The notes below the pieces were generated by a model, which worked only from the letters and a program-made list of their open reading frames with translations, had not been told where the DNA came from and did not search any database. Shown piece by piece: positions 1 through 14,213 of a stretch of DNA of 20,000 nt. This DNA comes from an uncultured virus (IMG/VR IMGVR_UViG_3300024518_004509) (lineage: Duplodnaviria > Heunggongvirae > Uroviricota > Caudoviricetes), in IMG/VR virus record IMGVR_UViG_3300024518_004509. One strand, 5' to 3'. Position 1 is the stretch's first letter, and each line of letters starts with the position of its first letter. A program made the translations under genes and the position numbers.

Positions 1-2
1 GT

Positions 3-413
3 AAGGTTCTTTATGTATTTGGTTTTAGGAAAGAAGAAAGTCCAGCCAGAAGTAAGAAATTAGTTTTAGCTCCTAATAAAATGCTCACTACTAAAAGAAG
101 AACTGTAGATGATTATTTACCTATACATACATGGAAAGTTGACCGAGTCTGGAGAGTTATCAAACACAATAGTTTACCTTATCATTATGCATATGACTTG
201 AAAATGCCGAGACTATCTTGCGTATTTTGTATTTTCTCACCATTTGATGCACTGGTTGTAGCAGGTAAAGCTAACCCGGAATTATTAGACCGGTATATTG
301 AAATTGAACAAAAAATAAATCATACCTTTAAAAATAAATTCGCTATTGTAGAAGTCAGAACAGCTATAGAAAATAATTATGAACCTAAAAATATTCCTGA
401 TTGGACAATGTAA
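3..413 (+). CDS. PAPS reductase (phosphoadenosine phosphosulfate reductase) family protein, C-terminal part; 5' end lies outside the window
   Basis: The frame is open from base 3 (KVLYVFGFRKEESPARSKK...), upstream of the ORF-track start. It has the G-x-R-x-x-E-S-x-x-R motif, YLPIHTW, and the RLSCVFC Cys motif typical of this family. Confidence 0.85.
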   Translation, partial: KVLYVFGFRKEESPARSKKLVLAPNKMLTTKRRTVDDYLPIHTWKVDRVWRVIKHNSLPYHYAYDLKMPRLSCVFCIFSPFDALVVAGKANPELLDRYIEIEQKINHTFKNKFAIVEVRTAIENNYEPKNIPDWTM

Positions 414-1000
414 TGAAAAAATTAAATAATCCTACACAAGAAGAATGGTTTGATTTCTGGTGTCAGGAAATGATAGAAGCCGGTTTCATTGAAAGAGTTG
501 ATACTCCTGTAGATTATGGAGTAATTAAACTTTTCGAAAAAATAGTTAAATCTGCTAAAGGAAGAAATTATGTTATACTTGAATCAATCACCTATAAACC
601 TGACAGGGTTCTATGGTGGACTCAAAAAGGATGGAATAAGATTTGGTCTACAATGGATCAATTTGAAGGTACTTATTTTATAGCACATCAAGAACCTACA
701 ACAGAAAAATACTTTTCATTAGTAGAGGTTAAAGCTCCACCAGGTTACGGAGGTCGAAATACTTCAGATGCATCTTTTAGAGTAAAACAAAAATGGGTAT
801 GGGAAAAAATGGCACTGTATGTAAATAAAGTATACAACTACCCTATGGGTAAAACTAAAAAAGGAAAGTTTAAAGCAGAAGGCCCATATCTTTGGATGAG
901 AACCTTTACACCTACAAGGTATTTCTTTACAGACAAAACCTTTACAGCAAAAAGCATTAAAAATTGGAATGCATTACCTATTGATAATTGGTTAAACTGA
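413..1000 (+). CDS. Putative PD-(D/E)XK nuclease (T7 endonuclease I / DUF1064-like)
   Basis: N-terminal EEWF, then TYKPD...LVEVK and FRVKQKW motifs. The likely start is ATG 413, in a TAATG overlap with the upstream stop (ORF track starts at 401). Confidence 0.55.
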   Translation: MKKLNNPTQEEWFDFWCQEMIEAGFIERVDTPVDYGVIKLFEKIVKSAKGRNYVILESITYKPDRVLWWTQKGWNKIWSTMDQFEGTYFIAHQEPTTEKYFSLVEVKAPPGYGGRNTSDASFRVKQKWVWEKMALYVNKVYNYPMGKTKKGKFKAEGPYLWMRTFTPTRYFFTDKTFTAKSIKNWNALPIDNWLN

Positions 1001-1032
1001 TACAAATTACATAAAATTAAAACATACTTATT

Positions 1033-1113
1033 ATGAAAGAAAATATACCGTATAATTATGCTACAGATTGTAGTATTGACTACTCTAACAGAGAAGAATT
1101 TTTAAAATATTAA
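1033..1113 (+). CDS. Micro-ORF, 26 aa (MKENIPYNYATDCSIDYSNREEFLKY)
   Basis: Hand-translated. TTATG start; the stop lies in the motif variant TAAATTGTAA. Confidence 0.4.
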   Translation: MKENIPYNYATDCSIDYSNREEFLKY

Positions 1114-1132
1114 ATTGTAAAATTTAAAGAAT

Positions 1133-1348
1133 ATGAACAAATTTGAAACAATAAACATGGTTGACACTTACGAAGTTGACGGAACAGAAACTAAAGGACT
1201 TAGTTCTGAAAGACCTAAAATAAGAATTACAAATCATTGGAATAGGAAAGAGTTTGTTAATGTTGAAATGAATGGTAAAACATATACTGTTTTAGCTGAG
1301 CAATTAAAACGAGCTATTGATAACGCACAAAATGCACATTCTTATTAA
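1133..1348 (+). CDS. Hypothetical phage protein, 71 aa
   Basis: ORF track. A-rich start; the stop lies in TAAACTGTAG. Confidence 0.75.
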   Translation: MNKFETINMVDTYEVDGTETKGLSSERPKIRITNHWNRKEFVNVEMNGKTYTVLAEQLKRAIDNAQNAHSY

Positions 1349-1358
1349 ACTGTAGAAT

Positions 1359-1655
1359 ATGGAAATTACGACAAAACAGAGAAAAGCACTTGAAATTTTA
1401 GCAAGTAAAAGACAGGTTTCAGCAAGAGATTTTGCATTAAGAATGTGGACTGATAGTAATATGCATAAAAAAGTGTCAAATCAAGGAAATGGGGCTACCA
1501 GAGGTAAAGCGGGCTGGTTGTGTGGAGGAAGTTATTTATCTAAACTCGAAATATTAGGATTGGCAAAAAGGTCAAGGTGGGATGAAAACGGCAACCATAT
1601 TAGCATTTCTACTTTTGAAATTACTGAAAAAGGAAAATTATTAATACAAAATTAG
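1359..1655 (+). CDS. Putative winged-helix DNA-binding protein
   Basis: Pattern TTKQRKALEIL...SARDFA...YLSKLEILGLA...FEITEKGKLL resembles a wHTH fold with a MarR/PadR-like wing end. Confidence 0.6.
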   Translation: MEITTKQRKALEILASKRQVSARDFALRMWTDSNMHKKVSNQGNGATRGKAGWLCGGSYLSKLEILGLAKRSRWDENGNHISISTFEITEKGKLLIQN

Positions 1656-1662
1656 TGTAATT

Positions 1663-1803
1663 ATGATAACAGAACAAGATTTAAAAAACGCTTTTAATAG
1701 TGGTAGGTCATATTCAGGTATGCCAAATGGATTTAATGATTTTGTACAAGAAAAATGGAAATATGAAAATTTTGAAGATTATAAAAAACACCTAAAACTG
1801 TAA
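1663..1803 (+). CDS. Micro-ORF, 46 aa (MITEQDLKNAFNSGRSYSGMPNGFNDFVQEKWKYENFEDYKKHLKL)
   Basis: Hand-translated. It fills the space between two junction motifs exactly and ends AAA CTG TAA. Confidence 0.7.
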   Translation: MITEQDLKNAFNSGRSYSGMPNGFNDFVQEKWKYENFEDYKKHLKL

Positions 1804-1805
1804 TT

Positions 1806-2108
1806 ATGAGAACGTGGAGTTATTACAATAATGAATTTAAAACAGGAGTGAAAGAAAAAGCATTATTTAAGTCTTTTGATTATCAATATACGTTTAAAGG
1901 ATTAACTCTGTTAGAAATTTCAATAGCGTACAGAAGTAATTTAAGAACCAATAAAGATTATAGGGAATATGATATGGGTAAAAAAGAGATTAATTACTCA
2001 TTTGATAATTTATGGCTAACACTTTTTTCTAACAAGTATTATTTCTTGTATGTAAGTTGGTCTTATTTTCATAAAGCAATAGAATTTTTTAAACCAAAAT
2101 ATAAATAA
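1806..2108 (+). CDS. Hypothetical aromatic-rich protein, 100 aa
   Basis: ORF track. Starts and stops in junction motifs. Confidence 0.7.
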   Translation: MRTWSYYNNEFKTGVKEKALFKSFDYQYTFKGLTLLEISIAYRSNLRTNKDYREYDMGKKEINYSFDNLWLTLFSNKYYFLYVSWSYFHKAIEFFKPKYK

Positions 2109-2117
2109 ACTGTAATT

Positions 2118-2258
2118 ATGGGAAACGATGTAAATATAATTGACAAAGCTATTCGGAATACTAGAAGAAAATTAAATGCAAAATGGTTTACCTATGGATT
2201 TATAATAGGAGTGATGTTTTGCGTTGCAACTATAATGATAATAACATTAATACTGTAA
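2118..2258 (+). CDS. Micro-ORF, 46 aa, basic N-terminus plus C-terminal TM helix (MGNDVNIIDKAIRNTRRKLNAKWFTYGFIIGVMFCVATIMIITLIL)
   Basis: Hand-translated, motif to motif. Hydrophobic C-terminal ~24 residues. Confidence 0.7.
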   Translation: MGNDVNIIDKAIRNTRRKLNAKWFTYGFIIGVMFCVATIMIITLIL

Positions 2259-2260
2259 TT

Positions 2261-2422
2261 ATGAAGAAAGGACAAATGTATTTTTATTTAGGTAGAATAT
2301 TTATAGCAAAAAAAATAAGTGGTAATGATGTTTTACCGACTAAATCGTGGGGTGCAGCAATGAGTTGGCATCCGATTAGACATTGTAAAATAATAGAAGG
2401 AATTATTAACTTTAAACTGTAA
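2261..2422 (+). CDS. Micro-ORF, 53 aa (MKKGQMYFYLGRIF...IEGIINFKL)
   Basis: Same frame as ORF-track 2183..2422, but the start is reassigned to the motif ATG at 2261. Confidence 0.65.
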   Translation: MKKGQMYFYLGRIFIAKKISGNDVLPTKSWGAAMSWHPIRHCKIIEGIINFKL

Positions 2423-2424
2423 TT

Positions 2425-2547
2425 ATGGAAACTGCTAATAAGTGGAAAGAACGAGCAAAAAGAGATAGGAAATATAGAAAATATTATCAGTTGAGAAATA
2501 AGGTAATTCTATTTATGGCTGATATAAAAGATAACTTAAAACTGTAA
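2425..2547 (+). CDS. Micro-ORF, 40 aa, highly basic (METANKWKERAKRDRKYRKYYQLRNKVILFMADIKDNLKL)
   Basis: Hand-translated, motif to motif. Confidence 0.65.
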   Translation: METANKWKERAKRDRKYRKYYQLRNKVILFMADIKDNLKL

Positions 2548-2642
2548 TATTCTTATGTGACTGTAATGTGACTAAGCGAGTAAAATAGAGAAAATTCACT
2601 CACAAAACCTATGTGATAGGGATGTGACTAAATACTGTAATT

Positions 2643-2726
2643 ATGACATATTTCCCAGAAATAGAGCAATTCACGATGTATGAAGATTATCATACCACAA
2701 CAGACGATAAAACAACAATCAAATAA
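2643..2726 (+). CDS. Micro-ORF, 27 aa (MTYFPEIEQFTMYEDYHTTTDDKTTIK)
   Basis: Hand-translated, motif to motif. Confidence 0.55.
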   Translation: MTYFPEIEQFTMYEDYHTTTDDKTTIK

Positions 2727-2735
2727 ACTGTAATT

Positions 2736-2861
2736 ATGAGAAAATATTTCACCTACTACAAAAAAAGAGTAACGGTAGAATTTGCTAAAAAAAGATGTTG
2801 GCGACATATTGTATTGAAACACAGTCCTTGTAAGAAAGATTGTGGTGCAAGTATTTGTTAA
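2736..2861 (+). CDS. Micro-ORF, 41 aa, basic with 4 Cys (MRKYFTYYKKRVTVEFAKKRCWRHIVLKHSPCKKDCGASIC)
   Basis: Hand-translated. Starts at a motif ATG and ends just before palindrome copy 1. Confidence 0.6.
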   Translation: MRKYFTYYKKRVTVEFAKKRCWRHIVLKHSPCKKDCGASIC

Positions 2862-2864
2862 AAA

Positions 2865-2892
2865 GTCCAGTTAATTAGTTAAAAAACTGGAC
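2865..2892. repeat. Palindrome copy 1: GTCCAGTT-N12-AACTGGAC
   Basis: Perfect 8-bp inverted repeat; spacer AATTAGTTAAAA. Confidence 0.9.
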
Positions 2893-2921
2893 AAAAGAAT
2901 AATTTTAAAACTGTAATAATC

Positions 2922-3041
2922 ATGGAAAAATCATTAAGTCCTAAACAGGCGAAAAATAGAAGATATAAAAAAGTTGGTGGTGGTGGTTGTATGGTTACAA
3001 TCGTAATAGGAATTATATCAATACTATCATTAATACTGTAA
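2922..3041 (+). CDS. Micro-ORF, 39 aa, basic N-terminus plus C-terminal TM helix (MEKSLSPKQAKNRRYKKVGGGGCMVTIVIGIISILSLIL)
   Basis: Hand-translated, motif to motif. Confidence 0.65.
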   Translation: MEKSLSPKQAKNRRYKKVGGGGCMVTIVIGIISILSLIL

Positions 3042-3043
3042 TT

Positions 3044-3226
3044 ATGTGGGAATATAAAACTGAATATAAAGGAGTTCACGAAGTAAATCTTTCACATATG
3101 GAAACGTATTTAAACAAAAAAGGAAAAGAGGGTTGGGAATTGGTGTATATCATATCAAAGAACTTTAGGGATAATGTACACGAATTTGCTAACCACACTT
3201 TTATTTTTAAAAGACAATCTAAATAA
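3044..3226 (+). CDS. DUF4177-like protein, 60 aa
   Basis: MWEYK...LNKKGKEGWELV...FIFKR matches the DUF4177 pattern. The family N-terminus begins exactly at the motif ATG (3044), not at the ORF-track start 2987. Confidence 0.8.
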   Translation: MWEYKTEYKGVHEVNLSHMETYLNKKGKEGWELVYIISKNFRDNVHEFANHTFIFKRQSK

Positions 3227-3245
3227 ACTGTAAATACTAAATATT

Positions 3246-3434
3246 ATGAAAGTTAATAAAAATTATTACAATAAAAATTGGAAAATTTTGCGACTAAAAG
3301 TTCCAAATGATCCAATAGGAATAAAAGAATGGTTATGGATGATCTGGGGATTTGATATATTTTTTGGTAGAGTGCCCTTTTTAAAAGTTATAGTACTATG
3401 TAACATTTTAATATGGGTATTTTTATTCTTGTAA
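3246..3434 (+). CDS. Small membrane protein, 62 aa
   Basis: ORF track. Hydrophobic C-terminal half; last gene of the array. Confidence 0.6.
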   Translation: MKVNKNYYNKNWKILRLKVPNDPIGIKEWLWMIWGFDIFFGRVPFLKVIVLCNILIWVFLFL

Positions 3435-3435
3435 A

Positions 3436-3465
3436 TGTCCAGTTAATTCGATAATAAACTGGACA
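3436..3465. repeat. Palindrome copy 2: TGTCCAGTT-N12-AACTGGACA
   Basis: Perfect 9-bp inverted repeat; spacer AATTCGATAATA; same arms as copy 1. Confidence 0.9.
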
Positions 3466-3471
3466 AAACTG

Positions 3472-3498
3472 AAAAAGCCCCACCGAAGTAGAGCTTTT
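3472..3498 (-). terminator. Intrinsic terminator, minus strand
   Basis: The minus strand reads AAAAGCUCUAC-UUCG-GUGGGGCUUUUU: a cUUCGg tetraloop, G.U pairs that form only on this strand, and a U tail. Confidence 0.8.
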
Positions 3499-3540
3499 GA
3501 ATCAAGAATAACTTTTTGTTTAACTTAAAACCTTATGAAC
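3472..3540 (-). ncRNA. Candidate small RNA 1 (~70 nt)
   Basis: Lies between a minus-strand TATATTTG (-7 element, 3545-3552) and the minus-strand terminator, with no ORF. Confidence 0.45.
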
Positions 3541-3544
3541 TATA

Positions 3545-3552
3545 CAAATATA
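3545..3552 (-). promoter_or_regulatory. Bacteroidota -7 promoter element TATATTTG
   Basis: Matches TAnnTTTG; no clear -33 TTTG at the canonical spacing. Confidence 0.5.
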
Positions 3553-3596
3553 GTGTATTTTAATTAAATGTTATAACTTTACCTAAAATAAAAATC

Positions 3597-3890
3597 ATGG
3601 CTACAGAAACCTTAACAATAGAAGAACAGTTCCTCTGGCATCAGGATCCTCTACAAGAATGTGCAGGACAACCTGTTATTGCTCAGCACAGCTTTGAATC
3701 ATTAGCTACAGAACTTGTAGAGTATACAGAAATTACTTACACAGCAGATGAATTAGTTGCATTGTTCTTCGAGATCTCTAAAAAGTATACTGCTTGTGGA
3801 GCAAATAACAATGAGAAGTACGCTATTATAAGAAAGAACCCGGAAAAAGGGTGGACTAAAATAGTTGCACAAGTACAGGAAACACCATAA
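3597..3890 (+). CDS. Hypothetical acidic protein, 97 aa
   Basis: ORF track. A-rich start; followed directly by a terminator; possible weak -7 element TAACTTTA at 3574-3581. Confidence 0.75.
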   Translation: MATETLTIEEQFLWHQDPLQECAGQPVIAQHSFESLATELVEYTEITYTADELVALFFEISKKYTACGANNNEKYAIIRKNPEKGWTKIVAQVQETP

Positions 3891-3924
3891 AAAAGAGCCA
3901 GCGTTGTTAGAACTGGCTCTTTAT
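3889..3924. terminator. Bidirectional intrinsic terminator
   Basis: AAAGAGCCAG (3892-3901) pairs with CTGGCTCTTT (3913-3922). The A6 run on the left gives a U6 tail on the minus strand. Confidence 0.75.
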
Positions 3925-3969
3925 AGCGTGACGAATGCTAAGAATGTATCAAAGTATTTTATCCTTTAC
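3889..3969 (-). ncRNA. Candidate small RNA 2 (~80 nt)
   Basis: Full minus-strand promoter upstream, a terminator with U6 downstream, and no ORF between them. Confidence 0.5.
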
Positions 3970-3974
3970 AAGTA

Positions 3975-4006
3975 CAAATGTATAATAAAATATTTTCATA
4001 CACAAA
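3975..4006 (-). promoter_or_regulatory. Bacteroidota primary-sigma promoter
   Basis: Minus strand TTTG (4006-4003), N20, TACATTTG (3982-3975). Confidence 0.7.
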
Positions 4007-4027
4007 TAAAATTAAAATATAATAAAT

Positions 4028-4058
4028 TTTGTTATGAAAATAATTTCTTGTATTTTTG
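4028..4058 (+). promoter_or_regulatory. Bacteroidota primary-sigma promoter for the 4088 gene
   Basis: TTTG (4028-4031), N19, TATTTTTG (4051-4058). Confidence 0.75.
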
Positions 4059-4087
4059 TTCTAAATAATAACTTAAAATTTTAAAAC

Positions 4088-4324
4088 ATGGCGAAACAAG
4101 CGCGAAGAAAAGCCCCAGTTAAAAAAGAAACGCCGGTAAAACAAATGCCGCAAAAAGCACCAACACATTATTTAGTACCTGCTCAAACAGTCACAGCACT
4201 GGTAGGTGCTCTAAACGAACTGTTGTTAGGAAAAGAACATACTAAAAAAGTCTTTTTCGACATCATTAATGGAGGATTTCAACCTTATGATCCTCCGGCA
4301 ACAGAAGATGCTGCTGAAAAGTAG
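4088..4324 (+). CDS. Hypothetical protein, 78 aa, Lys/Pro-rich N-terminus and acidic C-terminus
   Basis: ORF track. Has its own promoter and terminator. Confidence 0.8.
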   Translation: MAKQARRKAPVKKETPVKQMPQKAPTHYLVPAQTVTALVGALNELLLGKEHTKKVFFDIINGGFQPYDPPATEDAAEK

Positions 4325-4349
4325 TTGATTTTATTTTATTTATGTGAAT

Positions 4350-4375
4350 AAACCCTGTCAGCAATGGCAGGGTTT
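4350..4375. terminator. Terminator hairpin between convergent genes
   Basis: AAACCCTGTCA-GCAA-TGGCAGGGTTT with a GNRA loop, lying between the stops at 4324 and 4382. Confidence 0.75.
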
Positions 4376-4381
4376 CTCATT

Positions 4382-5869
4382 TTATGTACATGGTGAATTA
4401 GTCCAACAACCCGGTCCAGTTCCTATGATATTCTTATAGACTGTACCTATTTCTCCGTTGGTATCCACATAGATATATTGAGTAATTGTATAAATTACAT
4501 TGTTGGTAGAATCCCCGTTAGACCATAACAGTACACCTGTACCACCAGGATAATCATGAGAGACTGTCACATTTGTAAGTGATATGAAGTATTGTGAGCC
4601 GTCCCATTCCCATTTAGCTCTTGAAAGAATATTTATATTTATATCAAATATCTTGATCATTCCTGAATCATAAGCATCAAATCCACTTGCTATAAGTGGG
4701 TATTCTATACTCTGGTCTGCAGATGATTGTCCTGTTAAGAATTCCATCATGGAAATTACATTAGGTGCATTCTCTGCTCCATCCCATACAATCTTTGCTG
4801 AGCCACTCGTATAACTTGTGACAAGAGCTGTCATAGTTCCAAAGGTTTCAGGTGTAATGGTTTCAAACTCATCAGTATAATGAGCCCAGACATACATTCC
4901 TGTAGGCGCTTGTACTGTAGCAGCATCATCCAACCACACACGAGCACCCACATTAAAGGTATCACCATCAGATATGAACAAAGGTGTAGGAACACCTCCA
5001 TTACCTGCAAAGAGTCTTGTATCTTCAATCTCATTACATGTATTGACCATACATGGTACGTCATTTATCTGAGGTTGATGGTAAGCCTGACCAATTGGAT
5101 ATGCCGGATCTGGTGAGACTGGATTGTATTCAGCTTCAGTTATAAGTGTGCTGATAGTAGGAAGAACTCCATAATATGGTTCTTGAAGAGTCAGACTGTA
5201 CACCACTTCAGCTCCTTGATCACCGGAAAGTCCATTCATATCTGAAGAGAAATACATCTTATTGTTAGGAAGTGGTATCCATATTGAAGCACCCACTGCT
5301 CTATAATGTGAAGTAACTGTTTCTCCTGCTGCTATTTGAAGTTCCCATACTTCTATGGAACTGTCAGGATGTGTAAAGGTAATTGTATACTGGAAAGCAT
5401 AAGGCATTGCCAAATTCAGTGTGACGCTATGTGCCCAAATGGTATATAATCCTGAATTGGGTCCTATTGCACCTTCATATGTCCAGTCATTACCACTTGT
5501 AGCAAGAACCTTCTCAAGAGCATGGCCTGCTACTGTAGCTGTCGGGTATCCCCTGAATGCCATCATATCCCCGGGACGCTTGTGATGAGCATCTTCATTG
5601 AAACCGTAGAGCATTTCCCTGATCACAAAATATGTACACCTCAACAGGTCTAAGATGCCATTCTCAGCATCACTTAGACTGCCTGCAGGAAAAGTATTAT
5701 GTAAAATCCATGTATGGTATACAGCTTTGTTTACAGAACCTTCCTTCCAGTCTGCTCTGGTACCGTGAAGTGCACAACCCTTGCCCGGAACCCCTGTATC
5801 ATTAATAGGGACTCGTTTGCCGTCGTGCAAATCATTCCATACTTGGTTCTCAGCATTAGTATATGCCAT
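4382..5869 (-). CDS. Hypothetical 495-aa protein, probably virion-associated
   Basis: Long ORF coupled to the lysis genes; Gly/Thr/aromatic-rich. It contains a segment resembling the domain in 8056..8406. Confidence 0.7.
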   Translation of the reverse strand: MAYTNAENQVWNDLHDGKRVPINDTGVPGKGCALHGTRADWKEGSVNKAVYHTWILHNTFPAGSLSDAENGILDLLRCTYFVIREMLYGFNEDAHHKRPGDMMAFRGYPTATVAGHALEKVLATSGNDWTYEGAIGPNSGLYTIWAHSVTLNLAMPYAFQYTITFTHPDSSIEVWELQIAAGETVTSHYRAVGASIWIPLPNNKMYFSSDMNGLSGDQGAEVVYSLTLQEPYYGVLPTISTLITEAEYNPVSPDPAYPIGQAYHQPQINDVPCMVNTCNEIEDTRLFAGNGGVPTPLFISDGDTFNVGARVWLDDAATVQAPTGMYVWAHYTDEFETITPETFGTMTALVTSYTSGSAKIVWDGAENAPNVISMMEFLTGQSSADQSIEYPLIASGFDAYDSGMIKIFDININILSRAKWEWDGSQYFISLTNVTVSHDYPGGTGVLLWSNGDSTNNVIYTITQYIYVDTNGEIGTVYKNIIGTGPGCWTNSPCT

Positions 5870-6429
5870 TATTTCTTAGGTTTTATAAGATTTGATACTC
5901 CTGTAACTATGTTGGCAGGTCCGGTAGCTACTTGTATGATCGGTTTTAAAAACTTCCATATAGTAGGCCACAAAAAGATAAATAGAGCAAGCCACAAATA
6001 CCAAGGCATTGTTGTAATCTTCTTCTTAAAGTATTCATTTTGCTGCTCTTCAAAAGTCTTTTCAATCTTTTCACTCTCATTGACATCTGTCTTCTCAGAG
6101 GATGTCTCACCGATCTTAAATTCTTCTATGAGTTCTCGTGTCTTTTGGTCGTAGTAACGCTTGTAGGAATTGTCTCCTGAGCTCTTGGACGTATTCATAG
6201 CTGAAAGCAATGCATCAAATCTTGCATCCATCTCAGCGTTACCAGTCTGTGGTACTGGTGTGACGATCTTATCATCAATTGCCTTGTTGGTATCCTTGGT
6301 TGAAACAGAGTCTTTTACCTTTTCAGATTTATCTACTTCCTTTGTAGCAATAGAAGATTCACTAACCGTTTTAGAACCTAAACAATTAGTGAATATTACC
6401 AATATAATTATATAAAATAAATTTTTCAT
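5869..6429 (-). CDS. Lipoprotein with C-terminal TM helix; unimolecular spanin-like
   Basis: Signal MKNLFYIIILVIFTN-C, a hydrophilic linker, then WYLWLALFIFLWPTIW; located in the lysis cassette. Confidence 0.65.
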   Translation of the reverse strand: MKNLFYIIILVIFTNCLGSKTVSESSIATKEVDKSEKVKDSVSTKDTNKAIDDKIVTPVPQTGNAEMDARFDALLSAMNTSKSSGDNSYKRYYDQKTRELIEEFKIGETSSEKTDVNESEKIEKTFEEQQNEYFKKKITTMPWYLWLALFIFLWPTIWKFLKPIIQVATGPANIVTGVSNLIKPKK

Positions 6430-6815
6430 TGTTCTTTGAGTTGTCTGATTTCATCTTTAATCTGATACATTTGGTCAGCATTCAATATTACAATTGAATC
6501 TGTTCTTTTTCTCGCTTTAGCTTCTTCCAATCGTAATTCTACTTCCAGTTTATAGAGAGAATCTCTCTTGTTTCTTGATTTTATCCTATGAGTTTTTTCA
6601 ACACTATCAAGAATATAAGCTCGCATGTTTTGAGCAGGAGAAGGTTGTTGATCCATGTAAGATTCAGTTTCAATCCTCTTTTCTGGTGTAGTAAATAACC
6701 TACTTTCTTTTTCTACACTAATTCCACCCTGAGTGAAAATCCACCCAATAGCCCCTATCACAGCCATCAAGACAGCATATAATATCCAATATTTTTTTAA
6801 ATTATTCATTACCAT
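6426..6815 (-). CDS. N-terminally anchored membrane protein (holin/antiholin- or i-spanin-like)
   Basis: TM segment YWILYAVLMAVIGAIGWIF followed by a charged helical domain; overlaps both neighbours. Confidence 0.55.
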   Translation of the reverse strand: MVMNNLKKYWILYAVLMAVIGAIGWIFTQGGISVEKESRLFTTPEKRIETESYMDQQPSPAQNMRAYILDSVEKTHRIKSRNKRDSLYKLEVELRLEEAKARKRTDSIVILNADQMYQIKDEIRQLKEQ

Positions 6816-7393
6816 TCTTTTAAAAGTGCATAATCAACAGTTCTTGCTCGCGCCCAAGTTGCTTTTATCAAAGCCCTGTAATCAGTCATTCTGTTCCAGA
6901 CCTGACAGGCAAAGCTCCACCCATTGATATTTTGTTTTATAGCTGTACTGAAAGGGTCATAATCCACTCCATGCATATTGGCCCATATATTCGCATAGTA
7001 TAGTTTTCCCTGCTCTTCAGCCTTGGAATCCTTGTCACTATCCCTGTAATAGTAAATAGGTTTGTTGGCTCTAAGAGCCTTCATCCTTCCTTTATGGTAG
7101 CCAGGCTTAAAACAATCCAGTACAAATTGATTTGTCTTCCACACTGCAGCTCCACTCAAATTGTATTGATTGAAGTAGAACAATACTGTCTTTCCTGCGT
7201 TGGTGGTACCGGTACTCCACATGACAAATTTAGATCCATCATACACATAGAACTTATCATCAAATATATTGAAATAATCTTCCAATGATTGAACCCCTAT
7301 AACAAGGTATTTACCTCTGTTGGGAATAGTTCCTCCTACTTCTTCAACTCTTTCCAAGAGTTCTTTGTCTGTGAATTGTCTTACTGCACTCAT
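6809..7393 (-). CDS. Putative endolysin with a YkuD/L,D-transpeptidase-like His...Cys motif
   Basis: Soluble protein flanked by membrane genes. NMHG-x17-SFACQV resembles the HxX14-17(S/T)HGC catalytic motif. Confidence 0.55.
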   Translation of the reverse strand: MSAVRQFTDKELLERVEEVGGTIPNRGKYLVIGVQSLEDYFNIFDDKFYVYDGSKFVMWSTGTTNAGKTVLFYFNQYNLSGAAVWKTNQFVLDCFKPGYHKGRMKALRANKPIYYYRDSDKDSKAEEQGKLYYANIWANMHGVDYDPFSTAIKQNINGWSFACQVWNRMTDYRALIKATWARARTVDYALLKEW

Positions 7394-7659
7394 TAATCAA
7401 GTTTATTTTCAATTCTGTCTAATTGGTCCTTTATATACTTGAATTCTTTTTCAAGTTCTATCCTAGGTACAAATACTTCTATTTTCTTTTCGAAAGGCAT
7501 ATGAACTGTTTCATCTCCTGCATGTACCTGCAGTACTTCAATATCATCATCAGTCTTTTGTTTCCAAGAAGATAAGTTTATAATAATACCTATAAGTAAT
7601 ATTAAATTAATTCCTGAAAACCAATTCTGTTTGATATAATTTTTCGTTGCTTGTGTCAT
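7393..7659 (-). CDS. Single-TM coiled-coil protein, holin/XhlA-like
   Basis: TM segment GINLILLIGIIINL; C-terminus IKDQLDRIENKLD; TAATG-coupled to the endolysin candidate. Confidence 0.55.
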   Translation of the reverse strand: MTQATKNYIKQNWFSGINLILLIGIIINLSSWKQKTDDDIEVLQVHAGDETVHMPFEKKIEVFVPRIELEKEFKYIKDQLDRIENKLD

Positions 7660-7671
7660 ATCCCTTATATT

Positions 7672-8034
7672 TTAATGTTTGTTTTTATGTGAATGATGTG
7701 GATTATCTTCAGAATAAAATTCTGACTCTGAACCTGAACCCCCAAATTTATTATTAGCTTTACCCATCCAGTCCTTGCCTAATTTGGCCATCGCCTGAAC
7801 ATGATTGAGCCAGTATATTCCAAGTATATAAAGCAACGCTATAAAACCCCACATGTCACCACTGATCTTACCCCCATCAACAAGCCAGGTTGCAATGATA
7901 AGAACCTGCAATTTCCTGCTCATGGTTTTACCTAACAGCAAATCAATAATAGGTTTTGTTACTTTTTTCTCTGTAACATCTAACACTTTGTTAGTAAAAT
8001 CCTTTGTTCCTTGTAGTGTCATAATAGCATGCAA
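7672..8034 (-). CDS. Putative holin (two hydrophobic segments)
   Basis: SRKLQVLIIATWLV...WGFIALLYILGIYWL; first gene of the lysis cassette. Confidence 0.55.
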   Translation of the reverse strand: MHAIMTLQGTKDFTNKVLDVTEKKVTKPIIDLLLGKTMSRKLQVLIIATWLVDGGKISGDMWGFIALLYILGIYWLNHVQAMAKLGKDWMGKANNKFGGSGSESEFYSEDNPHHSHKNKH

Positions 8035-8055
8035 GTTACGATTAATATTTAAATT

Positions 8056-8406
8056 TTATGGGCATGCAAATTTGTTTGCCACTACCCCTGTTCCTAATCC
8101 TATATTCCCTTGAGACCCTCCACCTAATTGGTAATATTTAATTGCATTTCCGGGATGTGTTGTCAACCCACCTGCATTTGTATATATAATATCGCCATTA
8201 ACTGGGTATGCTCCAACTCCATCATGCCACATTTGAGTATCTTCTGCATCAGCACAAGCTTGTGTAGGTGTAGTCCAAGCCCCACTTCCCATTAAGAAAG
8301 ATGTAAGTCCTCCCCATATTAAGTTAGAACCCTGATACACAGCACTTATTTGTGTAGAGCCCAGTTTGATATCTGGTATGTCCGTGGATCCTATCTTTAT
8401 ACTCAT
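8056..8406 (-). CDS. Small tail-fibre tip/partner protein
   Basis: N-terminus IKIGSTDIPDIKLGSTQISAVYQGSNLIW is the type of module seen after fibres ending in T-x-AEY...TLY; ATGA overlap with the upstream fibre gene. Confidence 0.6.
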   Translation of the reverse strand: MSIKIGSTDIPDIKLGSTQISAVYQGSNLIWGGLTSFLMGSGAWTTPTQACADAEDTQMWHDGVGAYPVNGDIIYTNAGGLTTHPGNAIKYYQLGGGSQGNIGLGTGVVANKFACP

Positions 8407-10901
8407 ATCACAAAATAAAGGGTGTTGGCATCCGGTGTCCCTATTGCACCATACTCAGCTGATGTAAGGGTTATAATTTTTTGTGCGTCAGGATGAGATG
8501 AGTACGTATCTGTATCATTCATCACAAGTTCTGTCTCATCCGATATTTGACTGGTTGATATACTCAGTGCAGCTTCATGTTGGGTTACACTTGCCTCTGT
8601 GATATTGGCATCTGGAACATTTGCCCAAGTCACTGAAGCTGACAGGTCATTTACTTCAGCTATAGCAGTTATTGCAGCATCCAGATACTCTTTTGTGATA
8701 AGAGCTTTATCTCCACCCCTGTCAATATCCACCATTGCAATATCAGGTGCAAGCAATACATCCTGATCAATATCCACTGACATACTGCTTCCTATTGGAC
8801 GACCTGTAAACCACCCTGCGTGCAGTAATTTATTTCCCCTTGCATTACCATTACCACCTACGTTATAAGAGTATACGCCGAACGGTATAGTGCCAAACGG
8901 CTCATAGTTCAATCCTCTTCGGTACAGGATACTGTCTACCGGTTGAATTGCATCAGGTGTGTGTGAACCATAATTGTTTGGACGCATGATAAAAGTACCT
9001 CCACCACCTGACCAGGAACCATACATCTCAAAATTAAAGTATGCATTGTTTCCGTTGGTAAGCGATATATCCCCACCGTCCACATTAAGGTCTTTTCCGA
9101 TACCTAATCCACCTGCAATTACAACAGCTCCAGTTGAAGAAGATGTGGACTCAGTGACATCCTCAAAGGTTTTCACACCTGCCCAAGTTTGAGCACCAGT
9201 AGTGACAAGTCCTGCCAAGGCATTGGTAGCAGCATTTATTACTGCATTGGTACCTGTATCAGATTCAATGGTTACAGTAGTTGTAGTATATGCTGCTGTA
9301 AGATTTGCAATCCCTACTGCATTGAATGTAATGGTATCTGCAGAAGTTGTTATGGAATCCATACCTGTTCCTGATACGAAAGTAAGTACATCATCATTGT
9401 TATCTGCAACCACTGTAGATTGTCCTGAAACTGCAATGTTCTTGAATATATTTTGAGAAGAACCCTTATCTGTATTGTTGAATGTCAAATCCGTACCAGT
9501 GGACCATACTACTTCAACACCATCTCCGTCTCTGAAATCCACATTGTTTCCTTGTGTGATATTATCTTTGAGTACACCATTTTCATACAATGCCCAAGAG
9601 GTATAATGTGTTGTAGCAATATGTGAGTCTATCTGAGCATGTGTATTAGATCCTATATTAGAAAGCAATGTATGGTCAGTCACACCTAAAGGAGATGTTT
9701 CCCAAGATGGTACGCCTGCTACAACTGTAAGAACTTTACCATTGGCACCTATCGGCAACCTGTCATCTGAAGAACTGTAGTAAAATATGTCACCTTGAGT
9801 AGTAAGTGGGCTTGAATACCCTGCCCCAGTCAAATACTCTCTGGTCACCAGAACCCGACCAGTCGCCTCAGCATCAATCATTGTAGTAGTAAGTGATGGA
9901 GCTATAAGTTCTCCTGCTCGTAGTATATGGAATGCATTGCTTCTTACTATTGCAGGCCAAGGATTTGAACCTGAATATGTACCATTACCCACTACAAGAA
10001 TTCTATCAGTAGCTAATGGTGTACCACCACCACCTGTATATAATTCATTGGCAGCTCCAAACATAGCAGAGCCCCAGTTTGCATCATTGTTCAAACTTAA
10101 CCCAGCTGTAAAAGAGGAAGCTGAAGAAGAATCATTATTGGTCCCAAATGTGTAACACTCAAATAATCCTGTAGCATTACTACTGTATCCGATAGCCCAA
10201 TTATTATAATTAGTAGCAGTATTTTCAAGACCAACTGCCCAAGCCAATGTTCCATTTGCAACACATAGATTACCTTGTACAAAAGACCCCCACCCTGATG
10301 CAATATTATCTTCTCCGAATGCTACTGCAGAAGCACCTGTTGCTCCAAGCAATCCTGTTACGTCAGCATATCGAGAACTGAAATCTATGGCTTGATCTCC
10401 TATATTACCAAAGTGTGTAGGGTTTCTTCCTATAAGTCTCCAACCTGTATTTGTAGGTTCTTGAATAGCTTCCAGACCTGAATTTACATAACCTGGATGT
10501 GTATGATCCCCGGGTGCCGCAACTGTTGAGGTAGCCCCAAGAGCCACACCAATTGAATCTGCGCCCACCACAATGGTACCTATCGTACCTGCTGAGCCTG
10601 CATGGGATACCACATCAACAACCGGATCCGATGCCGTACCGGTATCTACCAGTCCATCACCTGCTGTTACACTTGCAACACCTGCACCTGAAGCTGTAAT
10701 GGTAAGCTGAGAACCTACCCAATTAAATGTGATACCTGTTCCTTCTACTAATTTCCCACTTGCTCCATCGCCCATAAGGAAATCCTCTGCACCTGCAGCA
10801 TCTTTAATGAATCGTGCTGCAAGGACATCTTGCCCATGAGCATCTACAAGCCCCAGAGCGTATAAGGTATCAATTACTGTTAATGTATAATGCGAAGCCA
10901 T
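8403..10901 (-). CDS. Tail fibre protein, 832 aa, with YadA-head-like repeats
   Basis: AVAFGEDNIASG-type repeats, AGLVTTGAQTWAGVKTF, TGAVVIAGGLGIGKDLNV, and C-terminal LTSAEYGAIGTPDANTLYFVI. Confidence 0.8.
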   Translation of the reverse strand: MASHYTLTVIDTLYALGLVDAHGQDVLAARFIKDAAGAEDFLMGDGASGKLVEGTGITFNWVGSQLTITASGAGVASVTAGDGLVDTGTASDPVVDVVSHAGSAGTIGTIVVGADSIGVALGATSTVAAPGDHTHPGYVNSGLEAIQEPTNTGWRLIGRNPTHFGNIGDQAIDFSSRYADVTGLLGATGASAVAFGEDNIASGWGSFVQGNLCVANGTLAWAVGLENTATNYNNWAIGYSSNATGLFECYTFGTNNDSSSASSFTAGLSLNNDANWGSAMFGAANELYTGGGGTPLATDRILVVGNGTYSGSNPWPAIVRSNAFHILRAGELIAPSLTTTMIDAEATGRVLVTREYLTGAGYSSPLTTQGDIFYYSSSDDRLPIGANGKVLTVVAGVPSWETSPLGVTDHTLLSNIGSNTHAQIDSHIATTHYTSWALYENGVLKDNITQGNNVDFRDGDGVEVVWSTGTDLTFNNTDKGSSQNIFKNIAVSGQSTVVADNNDDVLTFVSGTGMDSITTSADTITFNAVGIANLTAAYTTTTVTIESDTGTNAVINAATNALAGLVTTGAQTWAGVKTFEDVTESTSSSTGAVVIAGGLGIGKDLNVDGGDISLTNGNNAYFNFEMYGSWSGGGGTFIMRPNNYGSHTPDAIQPVDSILYRRGLNYEPFGTIPFGVYSYNVGGNGNARGNKLLHAGWFTGRPIGSSMSVDIDQDVLLAPDIAMVDIDRGGDKALITKEYLDAAITAIAEVNDLSASVTWANVPDANITEASVTQHEAALSISTSQISDETELVMNDTDTYSSHPDAQKIITLTSAEYGAIGTPDANTLYFVI

Positions 10902-10913
10902 ATTTTTATATCT

Positions 10914-13871
10914 TTAATATCCTAATAACCAACTTGTAGCTGTTATTTTTCTAATTGTTCTCATTCCATATTGAGGAATTGTTAAACCTCCTAATTCTGT
11001 ATTCAATGTATCTGTAGTTATACTTACAGTTACTACCCCAGTTCCTTTATTAGCTAATACTATTTCAGTTCCTATTGGAAAAGCAACAGAAGCATTTGCA
11101 GGAATTACACATGAAATTGCACCTGCATTACTCATAGTTACAATTGTATCTCTATCAGCTAATGCAAGATTTCTTGTAGTAGAAACATCATCACTTACAG
11201 CTTTATGTGACTGTATAGCTCCTGCTATTTCAACTTGTACAAGACCACTATGACTCGCTTCAAAATTATCATAACCAATTCCTATTTCTCCACCTTTTAA
11301 TATTGTAAAAGCATCATGCCTTGTTCCAACTGCTGTACCTATTCCTATATTAAATAGTCTATCATCATTATCCCATGCAAATGTAGAACCAGGAGTGTAA
11401 GCTGTTCCCCATTGCCCCATTGAAATTTCAAAGTAAGAGTAGGCATTTGTATCTCCATCAGTACCTATTGCAATAGATTTACTACCAGACGATACTGCAA
11501 AAGCACCTAAAGCTACTGACCTGTATCCTGACGCAGTTGAACTGACACCTATGGCAATACCACCACTACCAGTACCACCTGATGCAGCTGATTTACCTAT
11601 TGCAATTCCCTGTGATTGAGCAACTGATGCTCCTGAGCCTATTGCTATTGCTCCATCTCCTGCTGCGCCTGCACTTGATACCGTTGCCCCAGTAATTGCT
11701 CCACCACCAATTGCTATGGAATCATTTCCTCCAGCATCCGAGTTTTTACCAAAAGCTACAGCATTTATTCCTCCTGCATCTGCTGAAGAACCTATAGCTA
11801 CTGCACTTACTGCATCTGCCAATGTACCATCTCCAATAGTAATAGCATAAGAAGATGTGGCCGAACCACTACCCAATGCTATACTTTCTGATCCACTTGA
11901 TAAAGCACTGTACCCAAATGCAATTGCATCTGAGGCTGTAGCTTCTGCACCATCCCCAATAGCTACAGAATAATCTCCTGATGCAACTGTTCCATATCCT
12001 ATTGCTGTTGCATTTTGTCCTGATGCTTCTACATCTTCTCCTGCTGCAAAAGATGCATATCCGGTAGCTCCAAATACACTGGAAACTCCACTAGAGTATG
12101 ATAGATCTACTGCGAATTGTCCTACGTTTCCATAATTACCAGCAGTTCTACCTGCAATTACCAGACCATCACCATTACCCTCATCCAATAATTCTGTTCC
12201 ACCTCCACCAGTTGCAGGAACAATCCATTTCAATCCTGTAGGTTCTGTAGCATCAACAGACAATACCATTCCCAACGTAGCACCCACTGCAAGTCTTTGA
12301 TCTGCTGAATCATATGTCCATATATCTCCTTTTGTTGTCAATGGACTGCTGAGTGGTGTTATCCAGGTTCTTGACCCAGCTATAGTTGATGAAAGAACGT
12401 CTCCATCAGAAGATGGATTACCTAGCACCGGTTCATATACTCCAACCGGTACACCACCAATCATTGCAGTCGCCCGTCCTGTAGCTGCTGTGGAAAAATA
12501 TATCTCAGCAGTAGTATCACTCAATGCCCTGATGTATGTAGGATATACCACTTCACCATTAACTGTTTTTGCATCCCATACTGAAAATTGAGGATTCTGA
12601 AATCCCAGTCCATGTACAAAGGTCCATGTCTGTGAAGCAATGTCCTGATCATGTACCACCATTCCTCCTGATACTGCAGAGATGTATGGTCTCCATGCCG
12701 GGTTACCTGCACCATCAGTTGCCCACATGTAATTATAATTTGACCCTCCTGCAGATACATACCCTTCCTGTGCTTGTGTGTTTGCCTGCCATGTATCCGT
12801 ATGGATAGAACCGTCAGCTATATGAGTATCAATCTGTACATGAGTATTTGTACCTATATTGGTCAGAAGTGTGTGGTCTGTAATTCCAGATGACGTGGAA
12901 TTAATTGTCACTTTTCCTCCAGCTCCATAAGATACAGTAATGTCTGTTCCTGCTATGATGTCAAGTATATCACCTGCACCTATAGTAGTTCTTTGCACAC
13001 TATCAGTTTGCAAATTAAAGTAGGCATCAGAAAGCAGAAAATGTATTGTTGAGTCTGCGATATGGGAATCAATCTGAACATGAGTATTGGTTCCGATATT
13101 TGTAAGCAGAGTATGGTCGGTTACACCTATAGTGGATGCATCTACCCAAGTTCTCACTCCTGCTACTGTGGATACAAGAACGTACCCATCACCTGCAGGA
13201 TTATCTAACCACCATTCATAATTATGATTTGAGATAGCATGTGCATAAGCCATATCCCACTCACTTATATCACCAGTTGTAATTGCTTTTACATGTGCCG
13301 GTACAGTAGGGTCAGTTTCAATATAACTGACTACCTGTGTAGTTGGGTTCAATGAAAAATCAGGCGAGAACTCTATGGTCTCACCATCTTCAATAAGTGC
13401 TGAATTTGTACCATCTGTTATGGTAAAGTTACTCATTGTACCTTGAAAAACACCAGTTGAATCGTCAGAACCTACCAAGATATAGTTGATTGCTTCATGT
13501 TCTCTTACCCAAGTCACTATTCCATCTATATCATAAATATCAGCAGGCCAGTGTCCATGTGGACATACTGGATCAGGACACGGATGAGTGTGGTCAATAG
13601 GTGCATAGTTGATAACAAGATAGTCTATAAGGTCTGTCTGATTTGTAATATCACCTGTAATCTCTCCCCATACTGCTCCATAGTTCCTTGGAACCCATTC
13701 AGGTATTTCTGCATGATAGATATAGTCCAACTCTTCATCTATCACATGACAGATCATATGATCATACTTGATGACAATTGCATCCAGTCCGGCATATGTT
13801 GCAACCTGCATCCGTACGTCAATAGGTGCAGGCGCAAGTATGTGGAAATTGGTGTTTAAAAGGATAGACAT
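10914..13871 (-). CDS. Tail fibre/adhesin, 985 aa, with a long YadA/Hep_Hag-like head-repeat block
   Basis: More than 10 consecutive ~14-residue (A/S)(I/V)A(I/L)G repeats (~11450-12060), ETDPTVP, and C-terminal IPANASVAFPIGTEI. Confidence 0.85.
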   Translation of the reverse strand: MSILLNTNFHILAPAPIDVRMQVATYAGLDAIVIKYDHMICHVIDEELDYIYHAEIPEWVPRNYGAVWGEITGDITNQTDLIDYLVINYAPIDHTHPCPDPVCPHGHWPADIYDIDGIVTWVREHEAINYILVGSDDSTGVFQGTMSNFTITDGTNSALIEDGETIEFSPDFSLNPTTQVVSYIETDPTVPAHVKAITTGDISEWDMAYAHAISNHNYEWWLDNPAGDGYVLVSTVAGVRTWVDASTIGVTDHTLLTNIGTNTHVQIDSHIADSTIHFLLSDAYFNLQTDSVQRTTIGAGDILDIIAGTDITVSYGAGGKVTINSTSSGITDHTLLTNIGTNTHVQIDTHIADGSIHTDTWQANTQAQEGYVSAGGSNYNYMWATDGAGNPAWRPYISAVSGGMVVHDQDIASQTWTFVHGLGFQNPQFSVWDAKTVNGEVVYPTYIRALSDTTAEIYFSTAATGRATAMIGGVPVGVYEPVLGNPSSDGDVLSSTIAGSRTWITPLSSPLTTKGDIWTYDSADQRLAVGATLGMVLSVDATEPTGLKWIVPATGGGGTELLDEGNGDGLVIAGRTAGNYGNVGQFAVDLSYSSGVSSVFGATGYASFAAGEDVEASGQNATAIGYGTVASGDYSVAIGDGAEATASDAIAFGYSALSSGSESIALGSGSATSSYAITIGDGTLADAVSAVAIGSSADAGGINAVAFGKNSDAGGNDSIAIGGGAITGATVSSAGAAGDGAIAIGSGASVAQSQGIAIGKSAASGGTGSGGIAIGVSSTASGYRSVALGAFAVSSGSKSIAIGTDGDTNAYSYFEISMGQWGTAYTPGSTFAWDNDDRLFNIGIGTAVGTRHDAFTILKGGEIGIGYDNFEASHSGLVQVEIAGAIQSHKAVSDDVSTTRNLALADRDTIVTMSNAGAISCVIPANASVAFPIGTEIVLANKGTGVVTVSITTDTLNTELGGLTIPQYGMRTIRKITATSWLLGY

Positions 13872-13892: not shown

Positions 13893-14213
13893 TTATTCTC
13901 CCAAATAAGGTGTTCTCCTTAATGTGAGTCTTATTATTTCTTGACTTATTACACTGTAATTCCAACTTTCTTTTAGTATTCTGTAATCTGGATCCATTTC
14001 AATCAACTTAAACACATTCCCATCAGCTTCTACAGCAAGTCTTAAATATATACATTCATATCTGGTTTCTGAAGCTCTGTGCCAAAGTTCTGTATTTCCC
14101 AACTTTGGATGATGAGAATAGCCATAAACTACAGGTGGTTCTACATATGTAGAATCTTGTGCACTCATTTGAAATGCTATTAGAACGAATATTATAAATA
14201 TTAATTTTTTCAT
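13893..14213 (-). CDS. Secreted protein, 106 aa, Sec signal peptide
   Basis: MKKLIFIIFVLIAFQMSA|Q: basic n-region, hydrophobic core, and Gln at +1 as is usual in Bacteroidota. Confidence 0.7.
   Translation of the reverse strand: MKKLIFIIFVLIAFQMSAQDSTYVEPPVVYGYSHHPKLGNTELWHRASETRYECIYLRLAVEADGNVFKLIEMDPDYRILKESWNYSVISQEIIRLTLRRTPYLGE

Follow-up and report, generated by a model that had tools for sequence, protein, structure and literature searches.

A conserved 14-bp stop/start junction in a micro-gene array of a putative marine crAss-like phage: a candidate connector for the exchange of whole genes

A chain of very short genes without similarity to each other, lying head to tail and separated by nearly the same letters, raises the question of what these letters are for, i.e., whether they direct the expression of the genes, whether they are the points at which the genes are exchanged, or both. 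Such an array is located at positions 1033-3434 of a stretch of 20,000 nucleotides (nt), referred to here as the window, of an uncultured virus of the Caudoviricetes (IMG/VR record IMGVR_UViG_3300024518_004509). The window corresponds to bases 1309-21308 of the record read on the minus strand; the record is 41,332 bp long and rated 44% complete, so that the sequence covered in this work amounts to 41 kb, or 44% of the genome. The interpretation that we favor, to which we assign a probability of roughly 0.55 taken as a whole, is that the junction is a dual-coded connector, which stops one gene and restarts the next and is also a short-homology crossover point for the gain, loss, and reordering of genes, and that the array, a hypervariable accessory region, closes the block of replication genes at its 3' end in a phage whose host does not use Shine-Dalgarno sites.

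A first-pass annotation of the window had reported seven exact copies of a 14-mer, some variants of it, and about 13 unrelated open reading frames (ORFs) of 26-100 amino acids (aa), and all of these were recovered. The seven exact copies of AWACTGTAATTATG (Table 1) are all on the plus strand within 1795-3046, and none was found in 200 dinucleotide-preserving shuffles. For the core ACTGTAAT, 11 occurrences were counted in the window, where 1.66 would be expected (the largest value in a shuffle being 5), with ten copies on the plus strand in 1797-3042 and one at 13953; the 12-mer ACTGTAATTATG is found seven times in the entire 41,332-bp record, always inside the array, and 11 of the 14 ACTGTAA sequences on the array strand fall within it. 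The variant junctions are present at 1347, 1652, 2539, 2908, and 3225, the copies at 994 (AAACTGATA) and 1112 (AAATTGTAAAA) are indeed weak, and an additional copy of the core, absent from the earlier list, is located at 2560.

The connector has a length of 14-17 nt and the form (T/A)(T/A)A(A/T)ACTGTAATTATG, and the conservation of the junctions extends from two A's placed 5' of ACTG through the ATG. It carries TAA in two reading frames. The stop codon of the upstream gene is either the TAA within GTAATT (five cases), so that the upstream protein ends with L-K-L, F-K-L, or L-I-L, or a TAA/TAG placed immediately before the core (five cases). The gap to the next ATG is 2 nt after the inner TAA and, after an upstream stop, 9 nt in two exact copies and 7, 10, or 19 nt in the variants, the distance between a stop and the next start being 2-10 nt in 8 of the 12 junctions. 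The ATG directly abuts (A/G)(C/G)TGTAATT in 8 of the 13 starts; the core is 4-12 nt upstream in three others and weak in the remaining two.

The behavior of the junction in natural populations was examined by comparing positions 1-6000 of the window with the Logan contigs of four seawater runs belonging to four studies, and the figures given here refer to the contigs and loose ends listed. The segment 2414-2547, which is composed of the motif, the 40-aa ORF, and the next motif up to its TAA, is accompanied by foreign sequence on both sides in independent seawater runs. In run X4, unlike sequence is found directly before 2414 (99 letters), its frame again reading K-K-L-stop through the motif, and directly after 2547 (188 letters), with a new ATG-ORF opening 3 nt past the TAA; in run X6, one contig begins at 2414. 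Another X6 contig, of 151 nt, covers 2481-2542 and then 1656-1744, with the six letters TGTAAT common to both segments, i.e., it goes back 887. All four breakpoints are inside copies of the motif, which, together with a margin of 3 nt, occupy 11.5% of the region. These joints should not be repeat-induced misjoins, because the motif, with its 14-17 nt, is shorter than the word length of the assembler, which we take to be 31; a single-nucleotide polymorphism (SNP) bubble ending at 2547, i.e., 2517+30, fits this value. The substitution 2517 G>A, observed in three runs, corresponds to the stored M31I variant (P0032) of the 40-aa protein. The same cassette is found with different neighbors, the homology ending at the connector, and this suggests that whole genes have been swapped at the connector. 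The proposal of the first-pass annotation that the units are exchangeable cassettes bounded in the motif finds support in the foreign flanks of 2414-2547 and in the joint between 2542 and 1656.

The way in which the connector might work can be outlined as follows. It would end any gene placed before it and would offer to the next one an unstructured restart site, while in one frame it also specifies the C-terminal L-(K/I)-L of the upstream protein. Since the same letters are found at each boundary, the connector would also represent a short homology, and recombination or copy-choice between two copies of it, either in one genome or in co-infecting phages having the same connector, would move, duplicate, delete, or replace whole genes, always rebuilding an intact stop and an intact start. 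The candidate enzymes would be the phage's own Sak4-like single-strand annealing protein (E-value 1.3e-38), encoded about 12 kb upstream, and its 5'-3' exonuclease (E-value 7.8e-33), encoded about 5 kb upstream; it had been stated that no recombinase is visible, which is true for the window and has to be completed with these two upstream genes. Repeated exchange would keep the connector uniform, so that genes of diverse origin might become "formatted" with it.

A similar outcome could be imagined for a dedicated site-specific system, either integron-like or performing a targeted insertion that duplicates its target, which would recognize ACTGTAAT and insert or excise circular cassettes. We regard this as very improbable, given that neither an integrase nor a transposase nor any other site-specific recombinase was recognized in the 50 ORFs searched with Pfam and the 47 searched with PHROGs in the 44%-complete record, that no attC-type imperfect inverted repeats are present at the junctions, and that hairpins are found at only 2 of the 13 boundaries; nevertheless, such a system would fit the direct copies of one core that flank every cassette, the joint that goes back 887, which is expected from a circle or from a tandem copy, and the two cores lying 19 nt apart around an empty ATG-TGA slot.

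Some observations weigh against gene exchange at the connector. A stretch of 14-17 nt is short for homologous recombination, and the cores at 2541 and 2560 are 19 nt apart with ATG-TGA between them, which a clean motif-to-motif crossover would not leave. The population evidence consists of a handful of contigs with a depth of 2-6, not of raw reads; contig ends are weakly enriched at motifs (6/20, p 0.02, becoming 5/20 without the X5 end at 2547, which belongs to the SNP bubble), the breaks of run X3 at 1254-1264 and 1451-1476 are not at motifs, and the same proteins are retained in the near-identical contigs, of which the longest has 95,437 bp. The other contexts of the cassette could come from a second array in the remaining 56% of the genome, although this would still represent cassette duplication, within one genome. 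Finally, the uniformity of the motif could equally fit strong selection exerted by a sequence-specific binding factor.

Between the two breaks of X3 a contig of lower depth is found, and the protein P0012 differs from P0011 (the 71-aa protein) at several residues; these data represent strain-level divergence within cassettes, and not at motifs. Several loose ends are grouped at 4011-4054, within the intergenic region 3890-4088, together with an insertion polymorphism of 6 nt behind 4027, which suggests another mosaic breakpoint outside the array. As to the variant context of the cassette 2425-2547, a 30-letter consensus of loose ends had no match in viral contigs.

The last of the objections listed above leads to the possibility that the motif is an expression signal. 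It is not a general start signal, because none of the other 41 gene starts of the 41-kb record carries it (0/23 on the plus strand upstream of the array, 0/2 on the plus strand downstream, and 0/16 on the minus strand); the absence from late-gene starts of the minus strand had already been observed in the first-pass annotation, and the generic, genome-wide initiation context considered there was not found. Where core genes are tightly packed, overlapping TAATG or ATGA junctions are present in place of the motif. No consensus RNA structure was detected in eight aligned junctions, which are asymmetric apart from the inner TAATTA, and no Rfam family matches the motif, the single sub-threshold match being outside the array. 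The longest Watson-Crick stretch with 16S rRNA is 6 nt, with a duplex energy within the range of shuffled motifs, the Maribacter/flavobacterial 16S being used as a proxy that may not correspond to that of the host. Promoter-like sites of the sigma-70 type are 24 against 20.8 expected, none of them recurring at the junctions. The likeness of TAATTATG to the consensus of the Bacteroidota -7 box was rejected, in that a transcript starting there would be without the ATG and no recurrent upstream box exists. An early-promoter reading was also tried; for phage phi14:2, a preprint reports that the early transcripts share no upstream motif (10.1101/2020.03.07.982082).

The motif might still be a purely expression-related sequence that acts as a start-associated sequence (SAS), as the site of a RegA-type translational repressor or of an endoribonuclease on the mRNA, or as a "stoperator"-type DNA site, its uniformity being due to selection and recombination being incidental. 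The strict orientation on one strand, the fixed abutment of the ATG in 8 of the 13 starts, and the seven exact 14-mers, more uniform than ordinary initiation contexts, are in agreement with this idea, even though the spacing of the ATG varies in three junctions in which the stop-associated core is kept. Similarly, the core AACTGTAA is kept in a contig that is otherwise dissimilar (L168, described below), yet the relatives of the phage and the homologues of the cassette genes, including those of the winged-helix family, are devoid of the motif. A winged-helix protein is predicted to be encoded within the array, and a precedent exists in the 13-bp SAS of Cluster K mycobacteriophages (PMC3203893); on the other side, neither 16S complementarity (with the flavobacterial proxy, which may not be the host's) nor an Rfam family nor a consensus structure was found, and regulation alone does not explain the contig breakpoints at the motif. 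On the whole, a purely expression-related role appears rather unlikely, and exchange at a connector that also stops and restarts translation is preferred.

As to the genes themselves, the 13 ATG-ORFs cover 2166 of the 2402 bases (90%) of 1033-3434, against an average of 14.5% (35% at most) in shuffles and 21% on the opposite strand, and the joint chance of all these frames being open, calculated on base composition alone, is about 10^-32. They are mutually dissimilar, i.e., they are not paralogues. The earlier statement that the ORFs fill the space between the motifs holds for the overall coverage and not for the continuity of the chain, which is interrupted twice, by the 95 non-coding nt of 2548-2642 and by 2862-2921, which contains a hairpin; three blocks, rather than a seamless array, are thus obtained. 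Not all the genes are ORFans, as relatives exist for the 60-aa DUF4177 protein, which, as had been proposed, starts at a motif ATG, and for the 98-aa and 100-aa families, and these relatives indicate that the genes are real and of diverse origin. The 98-aa protein is a probable winged-helix protein according to its structural model, which resembles MarR/PadR-like folds (TMq up to 0.64, E-value about 1e-3), this likeness being at the fold level only. Its homologues in the viral contigs L280 and L281 are embedded in other contexts and have no ACTGTAA on either strand, which makes the connector a feature of the array rather than of the gene. Contigs of 52.8, 40.6, and 91.8 kb are among those that carry homologues of the 98-aa gene. 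The clustering of the 53-aa ORF with proteins of 705 aa is spurious, since BLASTP finds no similarity.

Table 1. Features of the micro-gene array and of its flanking genes (coordinates refer to the window).
Feature	Position	Strand	Remarks
Conserved 195-aa gene, left flank	413..1000	+	stop in weak motif copy AAACTGA 994-1000; homologues with 28-38% identity in L129/L141, L137, L142, L144
Micro-ORF 1, 26 aa	1033..1113	+	TTAAAAC box upstream, not motif; marginal 23-aa match in L142, E-value 0.002
Weak junction copy AAATTGTAAAA	1112..1125	+	
Micro-ORF 2, 71 aa	1133..1348	+	exact protein on 3 contigs; 90%-cluster variant P0012
Junction variant AAACTGTAGAATATG	1347..1361	+	
Micro-ORF 3, 98 aa, probable winged-helix protein	1359..1655	+	9 homologues with 49-71% identity; model pLDDT 82
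Junction variant TTAGTGTAATTATG	1652..1665	+	right-hand end of X6 joint
Micro-ORF 4, 46 aa	1663..1803	+	motif-coded C-terminus LKL, then stop
Exact junction copy	1795..1808	+	
Micro-ORF 5, 100 aa	1806..2108	+	six representative clusters with E-value <= 0.001, 27-67% identity
Exact junction copy	2107..2120	+	
Micro-ORF 6, 46 aa, hydrophobic C-terminal segment	2118..2258	+	ends LIL, stop
Exact junction copy	2250..2263	+	
Micro-ORF 7, 53 aa counted from motif ATG	2261..2422	+	ends FKL, stop
Exact junction copy	2414..2427	+	left breakpoint of cassette seen in other context (X4 loose end, X6 contig start)
Micro-ORF 8, 40 aa	2425..2547	+	cassette found with other neighbors; variant P0032 M31I = 2517 G>A
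Junction variant, then ATG-TGA and second core at 2560	2539..2567	+	right breakpoint
Non-coding spacer, three ATGTGACT copies	2548..2642	+	
Exact junction copy	2632..2645	+	
Micro-ORF 9, 27 aa	2643..2726	+	
Exact junction copy	2725..2738	+	
Micro-ORF 10, 41 aa, Cys-rich	2736..2861	+	
Hairpin copy 1, GTCCAGTT...AACTGGAC	2866..2893	.	fold -10.9 kcal/mol
Junction variant AAACTGTAATAATCATG	2908..2924	+	
Micro-ORF 11, 39 aa, hydrophobic segment	2922..3041	+	ends LIL, stop
Exact junction copy	3033..3046	+	
Micro-ORF 12, 60 aa, DUF4177	3044..3226	+	PF13783, E-value 5.5e-6, 26.9 bits vs. Pfam cut-off 25
Junction variant, core ACTGTAA + 12 nt + ATG	3225..3248	+	
Micro-ORF 13, 62 aa, hydrophobic	3246..3434	+	
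Hairpin copy 2, GTCCAGTT...AACTGGAC	3428..3455	.	fold -12.2 kcal/mol
Terminator-like GC-rich hairpin, closes array	3473..3498	.	
Conserved 97-aa gene, right flank	3597..3890	+	homologues in L137 (43% identity), L129/L141 (31%)

The hairpins at 2866-2893 and 3428-3455 have identical 8-bp stems, and their 3' arm and flank begin with (A/T)AAACTG, like the junction motif; a similar hairpin is found in different sequence contexts in runs X3 and X6. In the spacer 2548-2642, one of the ATGTGACT copies makes the ATG-TGA start-stop, which is immediately followed by the second core at 2560, and in run X4 an ORF follows the motif where the record has this spacer. The spacer might represent a slot that was emptied or have a regulatory function.

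In order to assess how the locus is organized in related phages, 16 related loci were retrieved via the 195-aa flanking gene, the PAPS-reductase-like gene, and the ligase. None of them contains a cluster of the motif or any other repeated junction 9-mer, and in five related whole records only single motif matches at chance level were found. In L129, the homologues of 413-1000 and 3597-3890 are separated by 74 nt that contain nothing but a terminator hairpin; in L137, the distance is about 500-600 nt (507 nt when counted from the extended stop, 600 nt from one matched segment to the other) and a single 133-aa ORF lies within it; in L142 and L144, the position of the array is taken by different genes. 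The fixed gene order in relatives that the first-pass annotation had considered as a possible objection is, therefore, not what is seen at this position. No match in the 16 related loci was obtained for 12 of the 13 micro-ORFs, and no DNA match to 1000-3500 exists among GenBank phages. Taken together, sequence comparison points to the position of the array being a hypervariable slot in this group of phages, because the relatives have a short gap or different genes there, with neither array nor motif, and the motif-linked array appears to be the filling of one lineage, i.e., an insertion relative to its kin. The slot 3' of the 195-aa gene contains differing small genes in each relative (L142 11097-12398; L144 1751-2131; L137 13226-13627), with ordinary overlapping stop/start codons, and the 195-aa homologues of L137, L142, and L144 end with K-L-stop.

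The guanine-cytosine (GC) content of the array, 28.3%, is lower than that of the other genes (36.7% and 38.7%). This difference between the array (28%) and the rest of the record (37-39%) might suggest that the whole block was acquired from an AT-richer phage lineage in which the motif is the ordinary junction, and that nothing moves at the motif now. The confinement of the motif to the array within the record and the existence of the same junction between other genes in L168 (GC 30%) are compatible with such an import. We consider it improbable, in that differences affecting single cassettes and a joint at the motif that alters their order are present in the population contigs, and no donor-type genome was found (a two-copy pattern of the motif gave 0 matches in the viral collection and 0 arrays in 39 prokaryote loci); moreover, this explanation only shifts the question of the role of the motif to the donor.

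The search for the motif elsewhere revealed the single 14-mer in at least 120 stretches of viral contigs, none of which, among the matches listed, has more than two copies of the core. The two-copy pattern had no match in the viral collection and was found in 39 stretches of prokaryote genomes, with no array, and in 92 stretches of metagenome contigs, among which only L168 looks alike; the others were rejected as satellites, coding repeats, a segmental duplication (L187), or chance pairs. In L168 (1,644 bp, GC 30%), ATAACTGTAATTATG, TTAAACTGTAATTTATG, ATAACTGTAATATTCATG, and AAAACTGTAAAT link ORFs of 50, 54, and 17 codons, and no similarity to this record was detected beyond the shared core. 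On this basis, one might speculate that AACTGTAAT(T)ATG is a "connector standard" shared by several unrelated phages of marine Bacteroidota (this crAss-like phage and the L168 lineage), that is, an integrase-free platform for the exchange of cassettes, possibly with a dedicated factor recognizing ACTGT; this broader idea is unlikely, but, if it were true, any micro-gene flanked by AACTGTAAT(T)ATG could be passed between co-infecting phages and be expressed at once.

With regard to the surroundings of the array, a plus-strand block (in the orientation of the window) extends from about 20 kb upstream to 4324 and codes for a family A DNA polymerase with 3'-5' exonuclease, a helicase, a primase, an ATP-dependent ligase, and the 5'-3' exonuclease, as well as for a C5 cytosine methylase, a PAPS-reductase-like protein, rIIA/rIIB-like proteins, and the Sak4-like annealing protein. 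The rIIA-like (E-value 3e-15) and rIIB-like (E-value 3.8e-5) proteins are thus embedded in a crAss-like replication module (6707-9229 and 5560-6729 on the minus strand of locus L008). From 4382, tail-type genes of the minus strand converge on this block and encode a YadA-head repeat protein, a laminin-G protein, and a phage tail tip domain; the tail protein of 985 aa (10914-13871, minus strand) contains the YadA-head repeats (E-value 9.7e-20), and the adjoining 832-aa protein has a C-terminal phage tail tip domain. The best GenBank phage matches of the polymerase are crAss-like in all 15 rows listed (24-27% identity), and seven seawater runs contain the whole stretch or part of it, five of them with at least half of its words; no RNA run is present among the listed runs holding the stretch. 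The micro-proteins are also found, identical, on the contig of 95,437 bp. The phage is, therefore, probably a marine crAss-like one, as judged from these similarities. A marine flavobacterium is the probable host.

The start contexts of the genes of the record are A/T-rich, and no Shine-Dalgarno sequence was seen by eye. A recurrent upstream pattern, also recognized by eye and composed of TTAATAAC, a few bases, and TTAAAA(C/T), is found 7-25 nt before several plus-strand starts; its sites are at 3567-3596 and 4058-4087 in the window and, on the minus strand of L008, upstream of the genes at window coordinates -19550, -11893, -11135, -9228, and -6728. A TTAAAAC box is also located 5' of the first gene of the array (1033). 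This pattern is possibly the promoter of the genes of the replication module.

Small accessory genes of phages are the home of many anti-defense and host-takeover functions, and the way in which they pass so cleanly from one genome to another is understood only in part. A minimal connector combining stop, restart, and crossover would explain how foreign micro-genes stay expressible after each exchange in a host without Shine-Dalgarno sites, and its sequence would be an easy means of tracing such gene pools in metagenomes.

It is worth comparing the array with systems that share some of its traits. The closeness of its stops and starts recalls translational coupling. Termination-reinitiation at adjacent stop and start codons needs no fixed sequence, and we know of no role of the ACTGT part in this process. 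Like an integron, the array is composed of promoterless cassettes of unrelated small genes arranged head to tail, with boundaries in a repeated sequence; unlike an integron, it has no attC-type repeats, neither attI nor intI was detected in the 41 kb (44% of the genome), and its junction doubles as a translation stop/start. In integrons, an attC site with R''/L''/L'/R' boxes closes each cassette at its 3' end, and a neighboring intI tyrosine recombinase comes with attI and the Pc promoter. The array is not an integron, and the term "integron-like" used in the first-pass annotation is to be taken as an analogy only, as the junctions have no attC-type repeats and the 41 kb yielded no integrase.

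The SAS of Cluster K mycobacteriophages (Pope et al. 2011, PMC3203893) are 13 bp long, precede the starts of non-structural genes by 3-7 bp, and have no known function. They share with the junction the asymmetry, the high conservation, the single orientation, the location a few bases before the ATG of non-structural genes of different families, and, sometimes, the inclusion of the upstream stop; they differ from it in that they contain a Shine-Dalgarno core, with extended pairing to the 3' end of 16S rRNA, and are kept across the whole phage cluster, whereas the junction has no complementarity to the proxy 16S, is absent from the relatives, and has its copies contiguous in one array.

The closest published parallel is represented by the promoter-early stem-loop elements (PeSL) of T4-type phages, repeated elements placed between ORFans that mediate modular shuffling and the formation of mini-circles (Arbiol et al. 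2010, PMC2839356). Both are short repeated elements that lie between small ORFan genes in a variable accessory (hyperplastic) region and span from the upstream stop to the downstream start, and in both, for the array as a proposal, recombination between copies would shuffle whole genes and, as described for PeSL, could give small circles; here, a single back-joint in a metagenome contig stands against the mini-circles of PeSL. PeSL are longer and composite, combining a promoter of the sigma-70 type with a stem-loop terminator and a Shine-Dalgarno site, whereas the junctions of the array have 14-17 nt, with no recurrent promoter-like hexamers and no stem-loop, are partly coding, and belong to one polycistronic chain. 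The array, thus, resembles PeSL in location and proposed role and is not a PeSL, since the promoter and the stem-loop are missing. Gene shuffling at short junction elements is already known from T4-type phages, and, by analogy, the array can be regarded as a variant of that theme, which would carry the PeSL idea beyond T4-type phages, to the crAss-like phages of marine Bacteroidota.

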